A stretch of 32,000 bases of DNA from Candidatus Jordarchaeales archaeon (GTDB taxonomy: Archaea; Asgardarchaeota; Jordiarchaeia; Jordiarchaeales; Freyrarchaeaceae): positions 1-32,000 of the forward strand of contig JAWCFL010000014.1 in NCBI GenBank assembly GCA_038858525.1, written 5' to 3'. Of the stretch, positions 19,154 to 31,938 are shown piece after piece. Position numbers and translations under genes: made by a program. Numbering within the stretch: position 1 is the first letter of the stretch; each line of letters starts with the position of its first letter. A model generated the notes under the pieces. It saw only the letters and a program-made list of their open reading frames with translations. It ran no database searches and was not told the origin of the DNA.

Positions 19154-20971
19154 TTAAGGGCTTTCTTCACCTTCATCATGCCTTTCCTCAATGTAGTAGT
19201 ACATCGATTTCGCTTTTTGCATCTTGTCTAAGCGTGACCCCTCCTTATTCACGCGTGGCCGTCCTGTTCTATAATCTCTTCTGAAGGTAATGTTCATCCG
19301 TTCAAGGAACCTATTCATTCCTGTTTTCAAATCGACGGGCCTGTGAGCTATCCCTTGCACTCCCGGCTTCCCTGTGAACACCATCAGCGAGTCTGATATG
19401 ACGTCGACGAGTACTATGTCGTGTTCGACTACGAAGGCGGCTGCCTCAGACTTCTCAATGACCCGCCTAACTACGCGTGCCATGTTAAGCCTTTGCTCTG
19501 ACGACAGGAATGCGCTTGGCTCATCGATGAGGTAAACATCTGCTTCCCTTGCTAGGCATGCTGCTATCGCTACACGCTGAAGTTCACCGCCACTGAGATT
19601 TTTGATCTCCCTGTCTAAGAGAGGCGTTACTTCTAATGGCTCTAAAACTGCTGTTTTGAAGTCGCTTGAGAAAACCTTCTTTCCTTCAGTCTCCTGTAAG
19701 AAAGCTTGAACCGTTCCGTCATAAGTTGCCTTCAAGTACTGAGGTTTATAGCTAACTTTAAGTGTCTGTGGAGGCATGCTTCCAGCGTCCGGCTTTAGTA
19801 TTCCCGCGATAAGCTTGACAAACGTGGTCTTTCCAATGCCGTTTGGCCCTATTATGCCAATAACCTCCCCCTTGTGTGCAGCTCCTCCTTCCACTCTGAG
19901 AGTGAACCCGTCGAGCCGCTTCTCCATCTCACCAAAGGAAACTATTACTTTTTCGCTAACCCACTTCTCGGCGGGAACGGGATTTACGTGGAACCTTATA
20001 GCTTCGCTCCTAAACCTTAAGTTCTCGTCGGGCAAATACCCGTCTAAGTAAATGTTTATTCCCTCCCTGACACTATGAGGATGAGTAACTACGCCGTAGA
20101 CTCCGGGCTCACCGTAAAACATGCATACGACGTCACTCAAGTAGTCAGCTAGGGCTAAGTCATGCTCGACGCATATGACTGTTTTGCCATGATCGAGAAG
20201 CCGCCTTATGACGCGGGCTGCATTAAGCCGCTGGTAAATGTCAAGATAGCTCGACGGCTCATCAAACAGATAAACGTCAGCTTCACGGGAAACTGCAGCC
20301 GCTATAGCGACCCGTTGGAGCTCGCCCCCACTGAGGACTTCAAGTTCTCGTTCAAGAACAGCTTCGAGCTCAAGCTCCTTCACCAGTTCGCGCATAGTCC
20401 CTCTCTCATCGGCTCTCTCGAGAAGGTCTGCCACCACTCCCTTAACAACCTTTGGCAGTAGCGTAATGTTCTGAGGTTTATGGACGACTTTTAAGTCGCC
20501 GTTAGCCATCTTCTCAAAATAACCCTGAAGCTCGCTCCCCCTATAATACCTTATAATTTCATCCCAGTCTGGCGGGTTATCAAAGCGGCCGAAGTTCGGC
20601 TTGATCTCTCCGCTAAGAATCCGCATAGCTGTTGTTTTTCCCACGCCATTTGGACCAATGAGTCCGGTAACCCTGCCACTTTTAGGGATCGGTAAGCGGT
20701 AAAGCTTGAAGGAGTTGGGACCATACCTAAACGTCAGGTCCTCCTCGAGCTCCTCTGGAAGGTTAACTATGCGTATCGCTTTGAAGGGGCACTTCTTAAC
20801 GCAGATGCCCTCTCCTTCACATAGAGACTCAGCTATCCTCGCTTTCCCCGTCTCCTCATCAAAGGTCACCGTCTCCTGTCTCATCCTCACTCCAGGACAA
20901 AACCTGTAGCATTCCTTTGAGCAATCGTTAGGCTTACATCTGCTCTTATCGATAACCGCCACTCTTACCAT
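19154..20971 (-). CDS. rli: ABCE1/RLI ribosome-recycling ATPase
   Basis: N-terminal Fe-S domain (CKPNDC..EC..FCP) and two NBDs (GPNGVGKT/LSGGELQ/DEPS and GPNGIGKT/LSGGELQ/DEPS), plus ITFRRD..TGRPRVNK. Confidence 0.97.
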   Translation of the reverse strand: MVRVAVIDKSRCKPNDCSKECYRFCPGVRMRQETVTFDEETGKARIAESLCEGEGICVKKCPFKAIRIVNLPEELEEDLTFRYGPNSFKLYRLPIPKSGRVTGLIGPNGVGKTTAMRILSGEIKPNFGRFDNPPDWDEIIRYYRGSELQGYFEKMANGDLKVVHKPQNITLLPKVVKGVVADLLERADERGTMRELVKELELEAVLERELEVLSGGELQRVAIAAAVSREADVYLFDEPSSYLDIYQRLNAARVIRRLLDHGKTVICVEHDLALADYLSDVVCMFYGEPGVYGVVTHPHSVREGINIYLDGYLPDENLRFRSEAIRFHVNPVPAEKWVSEKVIVSFGEMEKRLDGFTLRVEGGAAHKGEVIGIIGPNGIGKTTFVKLIAGILKPDAGSMPPQTLKVSYKPQYLKATYDGTVQAFLQETEGKKVFSSDFKTAVLEPLEVTPLLDREIKNLSGGELQRVAIAACLAREADVYLIDEPSAFLSSEQRLNMARVVRRVIEKSEAAAFVVEHDIVLVDVISDSLMVFTGKPGVQGIAHRPVDLKTGMNRFLERMNITFRRDYRTGRPRVNKEGSRLDKMQKAKSMYYYIEERHDEGEESP

Positions 20972-23852: not shown

Positions 23853-24194
23853 TCAGTCTTTCTTTTTTGCCTGCTTATAGTATATTCTCATTTGACGTTT
23901 GCAGTTGAGGCATGTGATCGTGAGGTGTGCTTCCCTATTTACTCTTAGTCGCACTCTGCAATTGACTCCGGGCCAAAGATAGGTTCCACAGTGGCGGCAT
24001 ATCCTGCGCCGGAGAGCCCTTGGCAATCTAACTTTTGCCCTAGCACTTATTGCCCTAGCAAGGTTAACGTATCTCTGGGCAAGGCCTTGATCTTCCGGGA
24101 AGACTTCTTCTGCAAGCTTCATTAGTATTCTTATTCTGCTGATGGCGATTCCTTTAACTTCCTCTATGCTAGGTCTCCGTTTAAGCCGAACCAT
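23853..24194 (-). CDS. rnp4: Ribonuclease P protein component 4 (Rpp21)
   Basis: Motifs A..RI.IL...A, LAQRYV.LA..IS, RICRHC...L.PG.NCRVR and TCLNC. Likely ATG 24194; the track start is GTG 24242. Confidence 0.93.
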   Translation of the reverse strand: MVRLKRRPSIEEVKGIAISRIRILMKLAEEVFPEDQGLAQRYVNLARAISARAKVRLPRALRRRICRHCGTYLWPGVNCRVRLRVNREAHLTITCLNCKRQMRIYYKQAKKKD

Positions 24195-24291
24195 CGCTAC
24201 GCCCCCGAATGACGAAAGTTTTTTCGCCAGTTTTTCACTCACTCTTCCTGTTGCAATCAGATTTCTCCTTCATACAAAAGGAACAGGAGGA

Positions 24292-24981
24292 TTGAAATTG
24301 CTTTTTCTAATTCTCGCTGAGTCGGCTCTGGAGACTATGCCTGCTAGCCTTCAGAACGAGCCCGCTGTTCGTAGCTTGGCGAAAAGGAGAAAGAAAGCTC
24401 CTTCAAGACTCATTCTTGATTCCTCACTTTTCCCCAGTTTAGTGAGGAAACTCCCGATGGGGGAGAAAAGAGGGCGCCCTGACATAATTCACATCTCTCT
24501 TCTCTGCGCTTTGAGGACCCCCCTCAGCATGGAAGGGCACTTAAAAGTTTATGTTCACACTCTGGATGATAAAATTATTGATATTGACCCCACAGTGAGG
24601 TTACCGAGGAACTATAACCGCTTCATAGGACTAATAGAGCAACTTTACGAACACAGTCAGGTTCCTCCGAACTCAAAACCCCTCTTAGCGCTCAAAAACA
24701 TGTCGCTCCCCGCTCTTCTGAGGGAAATAAACCCTGAAAAAACAATCCTTTTCTGCGAGGAAGGTGTGAGAGTGGATCTTAACGATTACATGAGAAACTT
24801 GTCATCACTAAGCAGAGTAGTAGCTATGGTTGGCGGCTTTCCTCACGGCTCGTTCTCGAGTCAGACCGAATCCCTGGCGGACGATAAAATATCCATCTAC
24901 GATAGGCCTCTCGAAGCCTGGACGGTCGTTTCAAGGGTAATATACTCTTATGAGCTGGCAATATTCAGGAAAACCGAGTGA
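24292..24981 (+). CDS. nep1: Nep1/Emg1 SPOUT rRNA pseudouridine N1-methyltransferase
   Basis: Motifs LAESALE, EKRGRPDIIH, RLPRNYNRFIGL.EQL and GGFPHG. TTG 24292 follows GGAGG; the track start 24142 overlaps rnp4 and is too long. Confidence 0.93.
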   Translation: MKLLFLILAESALETMPASLQNEPAVRSLAKRRKKAPSRLILDSSLFPSLVRKLPMGEKRGRPDIIHISLLCALRTPLSMEGHLKVYVHTLDDKIIDIDPTVRLPRNYNRFIGLIEQLYEHSQVPPNSKPLLALKNMSLPALLREINPEKTILFCEEGVRVDLNDYMRNLSSLSRVVAMVGGFPHGSFSSQTESLADDKISIYDRPLEAWTVVSRVIYSYELAIFRKTE

Positions 24982-25050: not shown

Positions 25051-25788
25051 TTATCGTGAGAGGGCTGCGATAGCTGCTGAGAAAGTTTCCTTTGCTTCTT
25101 CGATCGATGCGATGCCAACAGCTACTGAAGAAATGTTTCTAAGAGAAAATAAATATTCCATTGCTTCTCTCGGATTTATACTTCCTGCGGCAAGGGGCTT
25201 CATCGCTATTATTTTAACACCGCTTTCTTTCACCATCTCCATGAACTCCTCACCCCTCACACCCCCCATCATGTAGCCAGCTTTGTTCAGCGGCATCATT
25301 AACACGTCTACTTCGAGCTCCTCGATAATGAGCGGAATCGTTCTAGCTGGGTTATGCGTGACGACCCCCGCAAGGTACCCCTCATTCTCTATTCGCTTAA
25401 TCCAAGCTCTATTCTCCTCCATGTTCAGTTTGTCTGTTTGCTCCCCGTGCAAAAGCACAGCAACCGTGTCGAACTCTGAAAGGTGTTTCAGGGCTTGGCT
25501 CGGCATGTCGAAGGGCAAACTACCGACGACTTTGAGGCGGACCCCCGTCATCTCTTCAGCTTCCCTCACCGCTCTCCCTATTTGAGGGTAAGCAACGAGC
25601 TGGACTCCATTAACACCAATTTCTATGCAACCTGCCACCAGCTCGGTTATCTTTGAAGGATTCCTAAAAAAGCGCTCGTAGTACTTGTATGCCCTTACGC
25701 CGAACTGTCCCGCTCCCAAGAAAGGCGACGTGCCGAGCAGCACTCGTGGCAGCTCTCTTCCCTTAACATTTATTGATGGTATCCTCAT
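25051..25788 (-). CDS. Aldo/keto reductase-like TIM-barrel protein
   Basis: Motifs LPRVLLGT, LLHG, G.LAGV.TH, MMP.N..G and IIAMKPLAAG. The usual AKR catalytic Asp and Lys are not evident. ATG 25788; the track start is TTG 25794. Confidence 0.7.
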   Translation of the reverse strand: MRIPSINVKGRELPRVLLGTSPFLGAGQFGVRAYKYYERFFRNPSKITELVAGCIEIGVNGVQLVAYPQIGRAVREAEEMTGVRLKVVGSLPFDMPSQALKHLSEFDTVAVLLHGEQTDKLNMEENRAWIKRIENEGYLAGVVTHNPARTIPLIIEELEVDVLMMPLNKAGYMMGGVRGEEFMEMVKESGVKIIAMKPLAAGSINPREAMEYLFSLRNISSVAVGIASIEEAKETFSAAIAALSR

Positions 25789-25790
25789 TT

Positions 25791-26402
25791 TCAATACTCT
25801 TTCTTCCCTGCCCTTTTGAGTTCTTCCCTCATCAGGTTCCTAATAATCCTGTACATCTCCCCTTTGAAAACCGGAGGAACTATTTTTAGCCTGTCAACTA
25901 GCCTCTCGACCAGCTCTTCAACTATGTTTTCCTCACTCATAACTTCTATGCCAAGGACTACGCGGACGCCCACCTCTTCCACAGTAGACTTAACAACAGA
26001 CCTTATCACTGCGCCTATCACGCTTTCAGGGTCTATGTAATAGGGGAAGCGGTTGTAATCGTATATCTTTATGATACTTAAGGTCTCAGATATACTCTCG
26101 CTGTACCATTCAAGGCTACTTGCCTTAAGCCCGAACTTCTCGGCGAACTCCTCCTTCGAGACAGGGTTAGGGAACGAGAAAGGATGTCTACTCGCTAGGT
26201 ATATAGCTGCAACGTACGCCGCCTCTCTCTCCTTCGGAAGACCGGCCGCCTCGACATACCTTTTAAGGAGCGCTGAAGCATAAACGGAGAGCGCCTCCTC
26301 GACGTTGTTTTTGATGAAAAACTTGTATGCTTCCTTGACGAGCTTCGCCTCCTCCTCACCTAAAAGAAAAATGTTCTTTTCCGGAAATGAGTTGTAAAAC
26401 AT
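25791..26402 (-). CDS. Protein with a single cyclin-box / TFIIB-repeat-like domain
   Basis: ASALLKRY...GLP...AYVAAIYLASR....P.SKEEFAEKFGLKASSL resembles the TFIIB repeat pattern A..IL......G..P...AAA.LY.A......T..EVA...GV...T. Confidence 0.55.
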   Translation of the reverse strand: MFYNSFPEKNIFLLGEEEAKLVKEAYKFFIKNNVEEALSVYASALLKRYVEAAGLPKEREAAYVAAIYLASRHPFSFPNPVSKEEFAEKFGLKASSLEWYSESISETLSIIKIYDYNRFPYYIDPESVIGAVIRSVVKSTVEEVGVRVVLGIEVMSEENIVEELVERLVDRLKIVPPVFKGEMYRIIRNLMREELKRAGKKEY

Positions 26403-26417
26403 TTTCCTTCCTCCCGG

Positions 26418-26957
26418 CTACTTTTGAGTTGCTTGTTCGTATGCTTTCTGGAAGGACCATCTTGCCGCCTCCCTTACCCTGTTTAACCTGTGTTGGTCCC
26501 TGTAATTCAAAATGACAATCTCTCTTATCACGTCACCTGAAACATTGACCTCGTATTTCATCCGTTCATCCTCAGATATTTTTCCTTCATCAACAAGTCG
26601 ATTGTCCTCCTCCACCATGCTAGCTAAAACCTTCCCGATAAGAAACGAAGCTATTGGAGGAGAACCGTGATAAACCTTCAAATCAGCTGAGGGCACTATT
26701 CTGATCCTGTCCTTTTCAACATGTAACTCGGCGAGCGTCGTTTTCCCGTCCTTAGACAGTAAAGGTATGACTCTCCTCTCCTCCGCTTTTTTCTCCATGA
26801 CTTCAGCTGCTGATTTGAAGCTTGCCTCCTTCAACTCTCTCTCGACAAGCTCTCTGATCTTCTTCAAAACTTCAAGCTCGTAGCTTCTTCTATCTATCTC
26901 CTCATCAAGGTATGCCTTAAGCTCGGCGAGAACCTCTGCATCCACTACTAACACCAC
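26418..26957 (-). CDS. Hypothetical protein, N-terminal coiled coil plus alpha/beta domain
   Basis: GTG start follows GGAAGG; first gene of a tight 3-gene run (15-bp gap to the next gene). Confidence 0.8.
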   Translation of the reverse strand: MVLVVDAEVLAELKAYLDEEIDRRSYELEVLKKIRELVERELKEASFKSAAEVMEKKAEERRVIPLLSKDGKTTLAELHVEKDRIRIVPSADLKVYHGSPPIASFLIGKVLASMVEEDNRLVDEGKISEDERMKYEVNVSGDVIREIVILNYRDQHRLNRVREAARWSFQKAYEQATQK

Positions 26958-27046
26958 CTTCCTAAAGGCATCAAAAGCACAGACCTCCTACTTTAATAAG
27001 AGGTCTTCCCCTAAAAATAAATCGGTTGAAAAGGAGGGAAGACTGC

Positions 27047-27727
27047 TTGAAGGAAGGCGAATACGCAGTCTTCAAGTGTCCTAACTGTGGCTGTTACACG
27101 TTTGCTCCAACATCTCAGAAAAGCAGGTTCTGCTCCATGTGCGGAAAAATAGTTAAAGTAGACTTGCTTCATGCCGAAATAACAAATGATGCCAGAAGGG
27201 CGAGTGAGCTGGTTAGATCCCGCAACGCTAAAAAAGCCCCTCCAGAACTGAAAAAAGCTCTCAGAGAGAGTTTCACCGAAGCTGAGAAGAAAACACCGAA
27301 AAAAGGAGCTAGAACCTCATCCCTACTTATGAAAATCCTTATGGAACACTGTTCCGAGGAGGTAACTCTAGATGAGCTGGAAAAACTGTGCACAGACTAC
27401 GGATTAGACTGTGAATGGGTTAAGGAGAAACTGCCACAACTGGCACTAAAAGGTGTAGTGTTCTTCCCTTCACCTTGGACCGTTAAATGCACAGCTCCCT
27501 CGCTCCACAGGCCAGAGAACCAATCCGAAGAAGTGTCAAGTCAAACCACTAACTTAAACAAGTTAGTGATAGACGCTTTCTCGGTGCCGACTTCCAGAGT
27601 GAAAGTTGTTGAGTGGTTCGCCGAGAAAGGATACTCTCCAGAGAAAGTGGATGAAATCATCGACAAACTGCACAGAAGCGGTCTCATAATAGAAGAGAAG
27701 CCCGGGATATTTAAAAAAGTCGAATAG
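27047..27727 (+). CDS. DUF1922-like Zn ribbon followed by two winged-helix-like repeats
   Basis: Zn ribbon FKCPNCG..SRFCSMCG; wHTH-like segments ending EKLPQLALKGVVFFP and DKLHRSGLIIEEKPG. TTG 27047 follows GGAGGG; the track start is 27026. Confidence 0.7.
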   Translation: MKEGEYAVFKCPNCGCYTFAPTSQKSRFCSMCGKIVKVDLLHAEITNDARRASELVRSRNAKKAPPELKKALRESFTEAEKKTPKKGARTSSLLMKILMEHCSEEVTLDELEKLCTDYGLDCEWVKEKLPQLALKGVVFFPSPWTVKCTAPSLHRPENQSEEVSSQTTNLNKLVIDAFSVPTSRVKVVEWFAEKGYSPEKVDEIIDKLHRSGLIIEEKPGIFKKVE

Positions 27728-27733
27728 CCCTTT

Positions 27734-28408
27734 TTACTCCCTAAGGAACCTAGGCTTCGGCTTAACGGGCTTAAAGTGTTCCCCAAACTTCTCAGCTAGC
27801 CTTAAAGCGGCGACAAGCTTATTCTCAGTTGGTGTAAAGGAGTAAATAAGATGCGGCTTTTCACCCCTCAGCGAAACCCTAATTATCACATCGTTTAATC
27901 TCTCAACCTCATCTTGAATATCACCCTCAAGAAGTGATGATGCCGCCTCACTGTCTGACGCCCACACTTCTAGTCTGCCGATTACTGCAACTTTCTTCAT
28001 CTTCTCATTTAAGCCATCTTTCTCTGGTCTGATTATCTCCATCGAGAAACGCGGTCTCGCTTTGAAGTTCGCTTCGCAAAGGAAAACATCATCGTGAGGC
28101 TTGAACTTAGATACTATGTGGTGTAACAAGTTCTCTCTGTTCACAAGGTAGAGAGTGATATCCAAGCTCTCCAGAGGAGCATCATTAGACTTGCACCTTA
28201 CTTTAAACCCGCTGAGCCTATACCTCCTCTTCTCAATCACCCTGAACCTCTCTCTAACCCACTCATTAACCAGAGTATAGTATTTTTCCAGAAGAACCTT
28301 ATTCTTCCTCAATCCTAACGAGTAAGACACGATAAATGCTAACATAAAGGCGAAAAGCAAAATCGCCCCCAAAGTTCCTATGAAATCGATAGTCCCCGAC
28401 GTGGACAA
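27734..28408 (-). CDS. Single-pass membrane protein resembling CCDC47/DUF1682
   Basis: A TM helix followed by LAFIVSYSLGLRKNKVL, then ITLYLVNRENLL...KPHDD. Similarity is to the human sequence as recalled. Confidence 0.6.
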   Translation of the reverse strand: MSTSGTIDFIGTLGAILLFAFMLAFIVSYSLGLRKNKVLLEKYYTLVNEWVRERFRVIEKRRYRLSGFKVRCKSNDAPLESLDITLYLVNRENLLHHIVSKFKPHDDVFLCEANFKARPRFSMEIIRPEKDGLNEKMKKVAVIGRLEVWASDSEAASSLLEGDIQDEVERLNDVIIRVSLRGEKPHLIYSFTPTENKLVAALRLAEKFGEHFKPVKPKPRFLRE

Positions 28409-28423
28409 CGCGACACCCCAAAT

Positions 28424-29170
28424 TTAATCTATAACCTTCCCAGTAAATGGATTCATTTTTTTCTTACAGACAGGGCAAGCAAGCATTCCCGGCTTCCACT
28501 TTATCCACTCACCGCAGGCAGGACACATTAATTCGAGTTCCCCCTCCACATCTAATTCTGGCGGAATTTTCAGAAGCTCTTCTTCCTCTTTTTTTATCTT
28601 TTCCTCCTTTTTCTTCCTAACGGATTCAGACACACCGAAGCTTACCTGCCTAGCACCCCGCTTGCCCCCCGTCTTCCCCCTTCCCTCATCTGGATTTATC
28701 ACTTCAAGTATCCTACCGAACACCCCCTGATGCCTTCTCTCCTCTCTTTTTTCCTGTGGGATTTCGGGGGACTGAGCACTCCTCTTAAATTCCTCCACTA
28801 GAAGGATTATACGACCAATCTGTGACTCTGCAAGTCCCTTAATGATCACCTTGTTGCAACTCAGGCTCGAGAAGCGGCTGTCTACGTGATACTCCAACTC
28901 AAGCTCCTTAGAGTCCCTCTGAGCCCTAACATCACCCACATTCTCCAAGAAGAAACTCAGAGCGGCGACCTCTCTTCCGCCCCTTTTAAGGTTCTTCGCG
29001 AAGGATGCAGGCTTACCGTGGAATATCAAGCGAATGTTAGTCACGTAAAGACTACCCTCCTCCGTTTCCCGTCCTTCTCCATCCCCAATTTTAACTCCCT
29101 CGGAACTCAACAAAACTTTTTCCCCACGCATGAGGTGAGGAAACTCGCTTCCCTCTATCAACAAAGCCAC
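28424..29170 (-). CDS. PH/GRAM(GLUE)-like N-terminal domain, charged linker and C-terminal C4 Zn finger
   Basis: N-terminal L..GE.V......GV.I.DG......G.LYVTN.RLIF; C-terminal CPAC-x12-CPVC. Confidence 0.65.
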   Translation of the reverse strand: MALLIEGSEFPHLMRGEKVLLSSEGVKIGDGEGRETEEGSLYVTNIRLIFHGKPASFAKNLKRGGREVAALSFFLENVGDVRAQRDSKELELEYHVDSRFSSLSCNKVIIKGLAESQIGRIILLVEEFKRSAQSPEIPQEKREERRHQGVFGRILEVINPDEGRGKTGGKRGARQVSFGVSESVRKKKEEKIKKEEEELLKIPPELDVEGELELMCPACGEWIKWKPGMLACPVCKKKMNPFTGKVID

Positions 29171-29350
29171 CCGTTCATGTTCTCAAGTCTAAATGCCAAG
29201 AAACAAAATATAAAGTTAGAGTTTCAAACATTAAATTCTGCTAGCCTTTACACGCAAAATCTAATCTAACGCAACAGTAAACTACAGTTAACAAAGCAAT
29301 TAAAGTCGCTCTTCCCCTTACTAGAATGGGCTTCCCTCTGAAACTTTCCC

Positions 29351-30130
29351 CTATTGTGTAACGCTTAACATTTTGCCTGGCCACTTTGTCTTTAGAATCT
29401 TAATTTTTAACGGCTCTTCCACGTACAAGGTTACGCTGTGGTTTTCCATTATAAATCGCCTGTTTATCTCGTTGATCGTGCTTCCGTTATACATGCAGAC
29501 ACAAACCGTCTTCTTAAGCTTAGTTTTATCAATTTGCTCCTCGAAAAAGAATGGTTTTGTTGCGCGTCTTCGTGACCTCAAATACGAAGCATTGTCAAAG
29601 GTAATCAGTAACCCTTGAAATCCTCGTTCAAGCGAGTTCCTTTCAAGCCTCGCAACCTCTTCCACCTGATAGTGAACGCTTGGATGAGCGTCATAAAAGG
29701 AGCCTAGGTCTCCAAGCAGAACCCCTTGGCCTTCAACGTTAACTCTAGGCTCCCCAAGAACCATCTGAACACACATATACCCTTTCTCAAGAGCATCAAT
29801 GATAAGGTGCCTAAGAAGCAACTCCACTCCCCTAGACTCCCCTAGAAGAGCCACGTGACTGGGAGGAATCAAACCCCCCTTCAACATTAAGTCAACATCA
29901 TCTAGCCTTGTCTGAACCGTATATGGGAGACTTCTCGCGATCTCCTTCAACTTCTCACATATAACCACATAAAGGCCTGAACCAAGTTCATCACACCAGT
30001 AACCACAACATATAGGGACAGAGCCATCAAGCATGCATCTTGACGCTTTCCCCTCAGCCTGAACCCAGAACCTACAAGGCTTATTAGGCGAAAACCTGAG
30101 ATACCTCACTAGGAAATCCCAGTTACTCAA
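29351..30130 (-). CDS. KaiC/RecA-like domain with degenerate Walker A and a Cys-rich N-terminus
   Basis: TRLDDVDLMLKGGLIPPSHVALLG matches the T.I..LD..L.GG.P.....L.G entry of KaiC/RadA, but GxxGxGKT is absent. TTG start follows GGGGAGG. Confidence 0.6.
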   Translation of the reverse strand: MSNWDFLVRYLRFSPNKPCRFWVQAEGKASRCMLDGSVPICCGYWCDELGSGLYVVICEKLKEIARSLPYTVQTRLDDVDLMLKGGLIPPSHVALLGESRGVELLLRHLIIDALEKGYMCVQMVLGEPRVNVEGQGVLLGDLGSFYDAHPSVHYQVEEVARLERNSLERGFQGLLITFDNASYLRSRRRATKPFFFEEQIDKTKLKKTVCVCMYNGSTINEINRRFIMENHSVTLYVEEPLKIKILKTKWPGKMLSVTQ

Positions 30131-30417
30131 AGTCCTCCCCTGCCTTACCCCATCAGAAAAAACACAATAATCATTTTTAAATTTTTTTTAGTAAAAATAT
30201 CTCACGTTCTTCCATTATTTAACTTCTTTTTTTTATAAAAAGAATCTCATTTGCATATTTTTTTAAAATATCATTCAATACAACGGTTAAGCCATTTTAA
30301 AGCATGCTCAGTTTAACATACTGCCACCACTTTAATCTTTAAAAGTCTTTAATAACTTTATTTTTTCTCCATGACTTGAAACATTTAGAGTAGGTCTGCT
30401 GTTGAGAGGAGGATATT

Positions 30418-30822
30418 TTGGGCTTCCTGTCCAGAGAGAAAAAGCGGCTTTCTACAGTTAAAATTAGGAGGGCGCTTGTTGATGGTTTACTTGAAGTTTC
30501 AAGGGAAGTCCATCCTAGAGAATTTATCGGTTTACTGAGAGCAGAGAGGGGAGTTATATCCGAGGTAATTATACCCCCATTCAGCATTTATGGTCTGGGT
30601 GAATCGTCGTTTTCGCCATATGATCTCCCGATAGACCCCTCATTGGTTGGCAGCGTCCACAGCCATCCATCAGGAGACCCGCGCCCATCAAAACAAGACG
30701 TGAACGTAGCATTCAGTTTTGGATTCGTACACCTTATAATCACATATCCCTACTCCTGCCATGAGAACATATACGCCTATGACAAAGAGGGAAAACCACT
30801 AAAACTCATAATAATCGAATAA
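30418..30822 (+). CDS. JAMM/MPN+ (JAB domain) metalloprotease
   Basis: Upstream Glu in HPREFIG and intact HSH-x7-S-x2-D (HSHPSGDPRPSKQD). TTG start follows GAGGAGG. Confidence 0.92.
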   Translation: MGFLSREKKRLSTVKIRRALVDGLLEVSREVHPREFIGLLRAERGVISEVIIPPFSIYGLGESSFSPYDLPIDPSLVGSVHSHPSGDPRPSKQDVNVAFSFGFVHLIITYPYSCHENIYAYDKEGKPLKLIIIE

Positions 30823-31415
30823 GTCACCAAAGCCTAAAAATCGGATCCAACCAGTTTTGTATGCTGCTTTATGGATGTTCATGGAACTTTGTTCCTACGA
30901 GAAATTAAAAGCATCATTTAGGTAGCCTATATGCGGAGGACTTAACAGGCCAACAGCACATGTTTAAAGAAAAAACTTTTTCTAAATAGAAGCCGTCTGG
31001 TGGCTACTTTTAGCACTGATGGGGCATCGATGCGCTGCCTTTAACTATCGGCGGCAAAAGCCTCAAAAACAAAATGGAAGGGAATGGATGAACTATGAAT
31101 TCACAGCTAAAAGTCGTTAAGTGATTAAAAAAGCATGTGGGCAAATCAAAGGAGAAGAGAAAATAAAATAAAAATAAAATGTAGCTGTTCGTTTCTTGAA
31201 TTTCATTAGCGCTTTAATGATTTTCGCCGTTCGCTTTAACTAATTTTAAATTCCAAGTTTTTCGTTGTTAGTCTTCGGAAAGGAATAATTTTTAGTCTAA
31301 ATTGTGTCGCGTTTTTGGGTGTGCTTCATTTTTTGAAACTGTTTCTGTTTTTAATAGTGGAAAAAATTAAAATTGACTAGGTGAATTGTAGGTAACGATG
31401 TTCGTTGCTGAAAGG

Positions 31416-31431
31416 CGGTAAGCTTTATATT
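31416..31431 (+). promoter_or_regulatory. BRE/TATA-like promoter of rps19e
   Basis: cggtaag followed by cTTTATATt, about 50 nt upstream of the start; SD GGAGG lies just before the start. Confidence 0.55.
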
Positions 31432-31479
31432 TGTCTTAGGTTTGTCTCTTAGCAAAGGGCTAAAGGAGGACGAAGCCGT

Positions 31480-31938
31480 TTGGTGACGGTTTACGATGTT
31501 CCAGCATGGGACTTGATAAAGGAGACCGCAAGCATTCTCAAGGAGGAGTACCCCTCCATCTCGCCTCCTCCGGGGTCTCGCTTCTGGAAAACGGGTGTGC
31601 ACAAGGAACACCAGCCGACGCAGGAAGACTGGTGGTACATAAGATGCGCTGCTATTCTCAGGAAGCTTTACATTTATGGCCCCGTAGGCGTCTCTCGTCT
31701 CAGAAGTGCCTACGGCGGAAGGAAGAGGAGAGGCGTTAAGCCAGAGCACTTTACTAAGGGAAGCGGCGCCATTATCCGCAGGGCTCTTCAGCAGTTAGAG
31801 GCTGCGGGACTAGTGGAGAAGACTGAGAATAGGGGCAGACGTATAACTAGTGAAGGCCGCTCTCTGCTCGACAGGATCGCTTACAAGGTGAGTTTAAGGT
31901 TAAAGAAGGAAATGCCCGAAATCAAAAGTTACCTTTAA
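31480..31938 (+). CDS. rps19e: 30S ribosomal protein S19e
   Basis: Motifs TVYDVP, KTGVHKE, DWWYIRCAAILRK, GPVGV.RL..AYGG and GSG.IIR.ALQQLE.AG.V. Confidence 0.98.
   Translation: MVTVYDVPAWDLIKETASILKEEYPSISPPPGSRFWKTGVHKEHQPTQEDWWYIRCAAILRKLYIYGPVGVSRLRSAYGGRKRRGVKPEHFTKGSGAIIRRALQQLEAAGLVEKTENRGRRITSEGRSLLDRIAYKVSLRLKKEMPEIKSYL

Follow-up and report, generated by a model that had tools for sequence, protein, structure and literature searches.

The closest described relatives of the membrane protein considered here are eukaryotic CCDC47 (calumin; PF07946; 7TM3 chain 4, 6W6L chain 7, 9I78 chain 4), a PAT-complex and multipass/SND3-translocon subunit of approximately 480 amino acids (aa), and the mycobacterial trehalose monomycolate transport factor A (TtfA; 6T84; PF28092), which acts with MmpL3, together with the bacterial DUF3137 proteins. 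CCDC47 acts at Sec61/PAT (PMC7505659, PMC9630114). For a second protein, the known counterparts are the GLUE domain of Vps36/EAP45 (2CAY, 2HTH, 2DX5; PF11605) and the GRAM domains (Lam6, MTMR2), and an Asgard protein with a PH domain, Znr_PH_CC_SB, has been proposed as an ESCRT-I-like component (Makarova et al. 2024, PMC10936438). Two further proteins resemble the RadA/KaiC-like paralogues, such as SSO2452 (2W0M), and the JAMM metalloprotease AfJAMM/AF2198 (1OI0, 1R5X). Genes for all four proteins, named here CCDC47-like (P0001), GLUE-Zn (P0002), KaiC-like (P0003) and JAMM (P0004), lie side by side in the window that we analyzed, a stretch of 32,000 nucleotides (nt) from a Candidatus Jordarchaeales archaeon (contig JAWCFL010000014.1, positions 1 to 32,000). 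A first-pass annotation of this DNA had suggested that they form a pre-eukaryotic system for the insertion or sorting of membrane proteins.

Using comparative searches in 400 Asgard species genomes, in which f1 and f2 denote two sister families of this order (Jordarchaeales), we arrived at a narrower reading, which we hold tentatively and with somewhat less than even confidence: the locus is a lineage-restricted juxtaposition in Jordarchaeales around a two-gene operon of f1, GLUE-Zn followed by the CCDC47-like gene, whose products are functionally coupled, and it is not a conserved four-gene system.

Geometry of the GLUE-Zn/CCDC47-like pair

The stop codon TAA of GLUE-Zn (28424-28426) is followed, 15 nt on, by the TTG start of the CCDC47-like gene at 28408 (TAA-ATTTGGGGTGTCGCG-TTG), and GGGGTG can be read within the spacer, exactly as the first-pass annotation had described this junction. 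The corresponding spacers in four f1 genomes from two genera are 15, 15, 12 and 18 nt long; each junction carries a purine-rich Shine-Dalgarno-like motif, and the start codon varies between TTG and GTG. Because spacers of 12-18 nt each retain such a motif with differing start codons, co-transcription and translational coupling of the two genes in f1 are very likely. The distance from the KaiC-like stop codon to the GTG of GLUE-Zn, on the same strand, is 180 nt, again in agreement with the earlier description, and this gap contains a TATA-like element, TTTATATT, approximately 35-45 nt before the GLUE-Zn start. The element is probably an archaeal TATA box that would give the pair a promoter of its own.

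It should be noted that the annotated starts of both genes require attention. Since the homologues of GLUE-Zn begin with MIEGSEF, translation more likely begins at the TTG at 29161, which would yield a protein of 245 aa; a near-identical (99%) database record, P0013, also has 245 aa. Conversely, the database call of the CCDC47-like gene, P0005 (208 aa), begins 16 codons late (28361-28408), inside the transmembrane helix, and the longer start used here is backed by the homologues.

The GLUE-Zn and CCDC47-like open reading frames (ORFs) share one reading frame, with a single stop codon (TAA or TAG) between them, in all four f1 genomes examined (28409-28426 in this window; L032, L033 and L034), and the spacer lengths are all multiples of three. 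This shared frame is probably a matter of chance, at about 1 in 9. We considered read-through of the single in-frame stop codon, resulting in a GLUE-Zn/CCDC47-like fusion, and rejected it: with an N-out helix the 245-aa domain would be placed outside, and a frame kept in three lineages has a probability by chance of only about 1 in 9.

Proteins encoded at the locus

The CCDC47-like protein consists of 8 N-terminal residues, a transmembrane helix (residues 9-31), an alpha/beta domain and a conserved basic, proline-rich tail. It has one strongly hydrophobic segment (residues 9-27, Kyte-Doolittle 2.63), followed by a K/R-rich stretch; because merely 8 residues precede the helix and the K/R-rich stretch lies behind it, the protein is predicted to be N-out, C-in, with the globular domain in the cytosol. 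An AlphaFold model based on an alignment of 8 sequences (pLDDT 74.6) had four significant Foldseek matches, 7tm3_4, 6t84 (TtfA), 9i78_4 and 6w6l_7. Chain 9i78_4 was named as CCDC47 by sequence search, and 7tm3_4 and 6w6l_7 are chains that we take to be CCDC47 because of the complexes they are named for and the residue ranges. An ESM Atlas search by shape returned the same architecture for eukaryotic CCDC47, TtfA and DUF3137, for one Heimdallarchaeota cluster and for unnamed clusters of Chloroflexota and Acidobacteriota.

At the sequence level, P0001 matches the Pfam CCDC47 profile (PF07946) with 16.6 bits (E=0.0047), below the gathering cut-off of 27.7 bits, and its relative P0012 reaches 27.1 bits. 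An exhaustive profile search delineated a CCDC47-like family of 57 representatives with lengths of 152-255 aa. PF07946 was matched by 21 of 60 family members (E<=0.01, best E=3.3e-8), and these matches cover profile positions 7-227, i.e., the helix and the globular domain, whereas TtfA was matched by none of the 60 and DUF3137 by one. Compared with PDB sequences, the family profile hit only 9i78_4 (CCDC47), with E=0.36; thus, homology to the solved chains is not established by sequence alone. Taken together, the fold matches, the PF07946 matches within the family and the Atlas matches by shape make P0001 a genuine member of the CCDC47/TtfA/DUF3137 superfamily, with a sequence affinity to CCDC47. 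The CCDC47-like assignment of the first-pass annotation is upheld by the strong fold match, although P0001 itself falls under the Pfam cut-off.

The differences from the described members are substantial. A single transmembrane helix followed by a CCDC47-fold globular domain is present in P0001, but the protein is half the size of eukaryotic CCDC47, lacks the luminal acidic N-terminal domain and lacks the C-terminal coiled coil/latch, for which there is no room since P0001 ends 14 residues past the last predicted helix. In contrast to CCDC47, no Asterix partner was detected for it. Unlike TtfA, the CCDC47-like gene has no MmpL3 or mycolate context. A literature search found no paper pairing CCDC47 with Asgard archaea among the searchable papers; there are papers that mention both CCDC47 and archaea, in one case in a different context.

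The model of GLUE-Zn contains a confident PH fold (approximately residues 10-132), a disordered charged linker (residues 133-205, with 18 K/R and 15 D/E) and a small beta zinc ribbon of the form CPxCG...CPxC (C216, C219, C232 and C235). Its score against Pfam Vps36_ESCRT-II (PF11605) is 21.0 bits, compared to the cut-off of 24.1, and that of an f2 homologue is 22.7 bits. The top Foldseek and VIA matches of the PH domain are GLUE domains, with GRAM domains tied within 1 Z unit. It is thereby established that P0002 has a PH domain of the GRAM/GLUE type, and GLUE in the functional sense is not; that is, the PH domain and the zinc ribbon of the first-pass assignment stand, whereas its choice of GLUE over GRAM does not follow from the fold. 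The PH fold and an LYVTNxRLIF strand motif are common to GLUE-Zn, Vps36 GLUE and GRAM domains. Unlike Vps36, however, the domain stands alone, without fused EAP30 winged helices (EAP30 is encoded separately, on contig C3), and it has a C-terminal Cys4 zinc ribbon instead of the NZF insertion. The zinc ribbon matched no ubiquitin-binding zinc-finger family in Pfam.

GLUE-Zn and Znr_PH_CC_SB both join zinc ribbons and a PH domain to a region that is charged or coiled; however, the domain order of GLUE-Zn is reversed (PH, linker, zinc ribbon) and the steadiness box is missing. There is a weak alignment (hhalign E=6.4e-5, probability 64%) of the PH strand motif with the PH domain of zinc-ribbon Asgard proteins of approximately 510-530 aa from other families, which are of the Znr_PH_CC_SB type; one of them combines bPH_3 with Vps23_core (the steadiness box). 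Comparison with the genome's own 507-aa steadiness-box protein, encoded next to Snf7, was not significant (hhalign probability 0.5%). No longer, fused version of GLUE-Zn turned up when one was sought, which is weak evidence. We also examined GLUE-Zn as the missing N-terminus of ESCRT-II and rejected this candidate, as there is no genomic link to the EAP30, Vps28 and Vps23 genes on contig C3. Complex prediction for GLUE-Zn with residues 33-224 of the CCDC47-like protein gave an ipSAE of 0.00 in two runs without controls, which weighs neither for nor against binding.

In the KaiC-like protein, an N-terminal module carries four invariant cysteines (C19, C32, C41 and C46), and C58 is invariant too in an alignment with five relatives. 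P0003 and these relatives share the LD..L.GG...G block of RadA/KaiC proteins, and an hhhhD Walker-B-like strand also aligns. The best PDB profile match is SSO2452 (2w0m; E=0.0038, 20 bits), in which GEPGTGKT lies opposite GESRGVE of P0003 and GEPRTMT of the f2 homologues (GEprt.vt in the profile alignment). A motif search found no Walker A GxxxxGK[ST] in P0003; compared to the RadA/KaiC-like paralogues, the protein lacks the Walker A lysine and threonine, has the extra Cys4 module and belongs to a family limited to one order. Pfam returned only MEDS (0.021), a weak match, and KaiC clusters of the ESM Atlas at 0.88-0.89, below 0.9, are leads only. The label of pseudo-ATPase given previously is a fair reading of these motifs, with weak evidence for the fold (E=0.0038).

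The JAMM protein retains an intact E...HxHx7Sx2D motif (HSHPSGDPRPSKQD, residues 81-94), and its gene is intact and divergent from the KaiC-like gene, as first reported. It matches Pfam Prok-JAB (1.1e-8, 35.4 bits, above the cut-off of 25) and, over the full length, AfJAMM (1oi0/1r5x; E=3e-20); against the NCBIfam desampylase it scores 27.4 bits, far under the cut-off of 130. Judged by sequence, P0004 matches Archaeoglobus AF2198 at the level of an ortholog and is a JAMM of the AF2198 type, equal in size to AfJAMM, with the JAMM motif in common and no structural differences of note. This family is presumably found also in archaea that lack ubiquitin.

Distribution, synteny and competing explanations

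The CCDC47-like family is present in 112 of the 400 Asgard genomes, in more than 20 families, with named members from Jordarchaeaceae, Borrarchaeum and Heimdallarchaeota. Full-length GLUE-Zn is confined to f1, f2 and f15-f17 (one f17 genome is named Helarchaeota), and the KaiC-like family was found in all 11 genomes of f1 and f2, this one included, and in none of the 389 others. By the terms of the first-pass annotation, an adjacency unique to this genome would have spoken against it; all 5 genomes of f1, in 2 genera, in fact share the tight adjacency of GLUE-Zn and the CCDC47-like gene, which is found in f1 only. In genus g1, the S19e, JAMM, KaiC-like, GLUE-Zn and CCDC47-like genes are all together. 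In genus g2 (G115, f1), GLUE-Zn and the CCDC47-like gene are tightly joined, with the divergent KaiC-like/JAMM pair 6 kb off and inverted. The KaiC-like gene adjoins GLUE-Zn in genera g1 and g3, and in f2 it is directly upstream of GLUE-Zn in all assessable genomes, with the open frames approximately 3-90 nt apart, stop to stop. JAMM adjacency is restricted to f1, and in the complete f2 genome G116 the JAMM gene is 1.9 Mb away; together with the AF2198 match, this agrees with the caution of the first-pass annotation that the JAMM protein is of a short prokaryotic type and may be an unrelated neighbor.

Under the preferred reading of a coupled GLUE-Zn/CCDC47-like pair in f1, the CCDC47-like protein would be a tail-less, single-pass (N-out, C-in) protein that serves, tethered to the membrane, as an adaptor or chaperone, either at the site of insertion in archaea or on a client with several membrane passes. 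This role is suggested because both CCDC47, at Sec61/PAT, and TtfA, with MmpL3, are membrane-tethered accessory subunits that dock on multipass machines from the cytosolic side, and by this analogy the simplest guess for the Asgard family as a whole is likewise an accessory subunit. GLUE-Zn, soluble and composed of a PH domain, a floppy charged linker and a zinc ribbon, would most likely be recruited to the membrane in Jordarchaeaceae, as a peripheral partner or regulator specific to this lineage. The KaiC-like gene would be an order-specific neighbor that follows GLUE-Zn more closely than it follows the CCDC47-like gene, and the JAMM gene an ordinary archaeal gene of the AF2198 type that merely sits next door. 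We give functional coupling of GLUE-Zn with the CCDC47-like protein somewhat less than an even chance. The arrangement of the genes, their folds, motifs, distribution and synteny were observed, whereas topology, co-transcription, binding and every function are inferred.

Several observations weigh against this coupling. In f2, GLUE-Zn and the CCDC47-like gene still follow each other in this order on one strand, but the two are 1.1-5 kb apart, separated by HdrD-like CCG/Fe-S genes and a carbon-nitrogen hydrolase (nitrilase), some of them on the opposite strand, so that co-transcription is broken there. In the f15-f17 genomes that have GLUE-Zn, no CCDC47-like or KaiC-like gene was detected, and 20 sampled CCDC47-like loci of other families have no GLUE-Zn-like ORF within 6 kb, even at E<=10. 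Thus, the CCDC47-like, GLUE-Zn and KaiC-like genes have discordant phyletic patterns, which excludes an obligate partnership of the first two. No homologue of Asterix (PF03669), the PAT partner of CCDC47, was found in this genome, which is 92.7% complete; the best match (E=0.1) is interrupted by a stop codon, and matches of this kind also arise in control genomes. The CCDC47 fold occurs also in bacterial clusters (TtfA, DUF3137, Chloroflexota and Acidobacteriota), and the fold by itself therefore does not indicate a role at the translocon. Finally, seven consecutive genes of the window (25054-30187) are collinear with G116, and on this evidence the proximity of the locus genes does not go beyond what the order shows as background synteny.

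The last observation also speaks for another explanation, i.e., that four functionally unrelated genes, housekeeping or lineage-specific, have been inherited together in a slowly rearranging block of Jordarchaeales, the short spacer being nothing but compact archaeal packing. The discordant phyletic patterns fit this explanation too, each of the pairings is interrupted somewhere in the order, and the surrounding genes (ABCE1, Rpr2, EMG1 and S19e) are unrelated housekeeping genes. Against it stand the spacer of 12-18 nt with a Shine-Dalgarno-like motif, retained across two genera while its sequence and length change, and the order and strand of the pair, retained in f2 despite the insertions; we consider inherited synteny alone a serious alternative, if a rather doubtful one. 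Another arrangement places the function in the KaiC-like and GLUE-Zn proteins, for example as a metal- or redox-sensing Cys4 scaffold with a PH/zinc adaptor, and makes the CCDC47-like gene a bystander. The two genes directly adjoin in g1 and in all assessable f2 genomes, where the CCDC47-like gene has drifted away, and within this order the KaiC-like family is found only where GLUE-Zn exists. Yet in G115 it is the KaiC-like gene that has moved and been inverted while GLUE-Zn stays with the CCDC47-like gene, the GLUE-Zn homologues of f15-f17 have no detectable KaiC-like partner, and the TATA-like element within the 180 nt between the two genes points to separate transcripts in this genome, all of which renders this pairing unlikely.

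The four-gene, ubiquitin-linked system for insertion or sorting that was originally proposed has several points in its favor: none of the four domain calls has failed, genes for ubiquitin and for components of ESCRT-I/II/III are present in the genome, so that a GLUE-like domain able to bind ubiquitin would find its ligand there, and a RING-finger gene is directly upstream of a GLUE-Zn homologue in one Helarchaeota-type genome. The comparative data nevertheless point away from it. The four genes are together only in genus g1 and do not co-occur across the phylum; conservation of the neighborhood across Asgard classes, which had been suggested as a check, was not found, tight linkage being confined to one family. 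The JAMM protein is of the AF2198 type, GLUE cannot be separated from GRAM by fold, and the zinc ribbon does not match ubiquitin-binding families. The suggested association with ubiquitin-ESCRT loci is not seen either, as ubiquitin is encoded on contig C53, UEV-Vps23/Vps28/EAP30 on C3 and Snf7 on C54, all off this contig. We judge this system most improbable. Scarcely more probable is a bolder variant of the preferred pair, in which Asgard archaea carry a true tail-less ancestor of CCDC47, translationally coupled in Jordarchaeaceae to a GLUE-like PH/zinc adaptor that would read a mark such as ubiquitin or a lipid on membrane-protein clients, the two forming a minimal pre-ER insert-or-sort module regulated by the Cys4 pseudo-ATPase.

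If the CCDC47-like family is the archaeal forerunner of the multipass-translocon subunit, one more piece of the membrane-protein biogenesis machinery of the endoplasmic reticulum (ER) predates eukaryotes. If true, a quality-control system of four genes would be of far greater consequence, but it lacks backing from the comparative evidence. What is left standing is a lineage-specific gene pair, which offers a cheap, testable candidate partner for the uncharacterized CCDC47-like family of Asgard archaea.

Beyond Jordarchaeales, the CCDC47-like gene in several families is located beside a gene for the multipass transporter CstA and two genes for ArsA/Get3-type ATPases, a neighborhood that fits a membrane-protein-related role of the family and proves nothing. 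This cluster recurs at loci L046, L047, L048, L049, L052 and L064 (f4, f32, f31 and f11), which hold the closest CCDC47-like genes outside Jordarchaeales; it includes a 195-240-aa protein of cluster c9 (also found at the f28 locus L051), the carbon-starvation transporter CstA, the two ATPases in tandem and one to three small proteins of 94-136 aa with the motif PPYYSLRL...WKR..LKERD. A search for Pfam DAD/OST2 gave nothing above the cut-off in the 400 Asgard genomes and is uninformative on the context of the CCDC47-like gene. Ras/Arf-family small GTPase genes are directly beside CCDC47-like genes in f8 (L054, L055 and L061) and f11 (L056 and L062), and such genes also adjoin the GLUE-Zn homologues of f16 and f17 (L043 and L044); small GTPases are numerous in Asgard genomes, and these neighbors may be due to chance. 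The RING-finger arrangement is seen in one genome only, G126, where a zinc-ribbon and RING-finger gene (L043:6413-6994, minus strand; zf-RING_2, E=7e-9) precedes the GLUE-Zn homologue on the same strand and an Arf-like GTPase gene is downstream.

Coordinates and neighboring genes

Table 1. Genes and intergenic regions of the locus and its surroundings (positions in the window)
Feature	Position	Strand	Description
CCDC47-like gene (P0001)	27734-28408	-	224 aa, TTG start; CCDC47/TtfA-fold membrane protein
Spacer GLUE-Zn/CCDC47-like	28409-28423	-	15 nt, with Shine-Dalgarno-like GGGGTG
GLUE-Zn gene (P0002)	28424-29170	-	248 aa; PH fold, linker and zinc ribbon
Intergenic region upstream of GLUE-Zn	29171-29350	-	180 nt, with TATA-like element
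KaiC-like gene (P0003)	29351-30130	-	259 aa; Cys module and RadA/KaiC-like domain
Divergent KaiC-like/JAMM intergenic region	30131-30417	.	287 nt, AT-rich
JAMM gene (P0004)	30418-30822	+	134 aa; stand-alone metalloprotease of AF2198/AfJAMM type
ABCE1/RLI	19154-20971		Translation/ribosome-biogenesis neighbor
RNase P Rpr2	23853-24242		Translation/ribosome-biogenesis neighbor
EMG1/Nep1	24142-24981		Translation/ribosome-biogenesis neighbor
DUF1922 gene	27026-27727	+	Zinc-ribbon protein with C-terminal winged-helix-like region; convergent with the CCDC47-like gene
Ribosomal protein S19e	31480-31938		Translation/ribosome-biogenesis neighbor

The ends of the DUF1922 and CCDC47-like genes are separated by 6 nt, and the position of the DUF1922 gene is conserved in f1. 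Between the JAMM and S19e genes (30823-31479, approximately 650 nt) there is no convincing ORF, tRNA or Rfam match, and the tRNA and Rfam searches of the 26-32 kb part of the window found no family. Elsewhere in this genome, the UEV/E2-Vps23, Vps28 and EAP30 genes on C3 form an operon (L076), and the 507-aa protein mentioned above (C54:6699-8222; L075:1200-2723), which has a weak match to the Vps23 core, is encoded next to Snf7 and a proteasome alpha subunit. In genome G178 of family f20, a 509-aa protein (L072:1120-2649, plus strand) combines an actin domain (E=2e-67) with C-terminal zinc ribbons, and similar ORFs of approximately 505-520 aa recur across that family.

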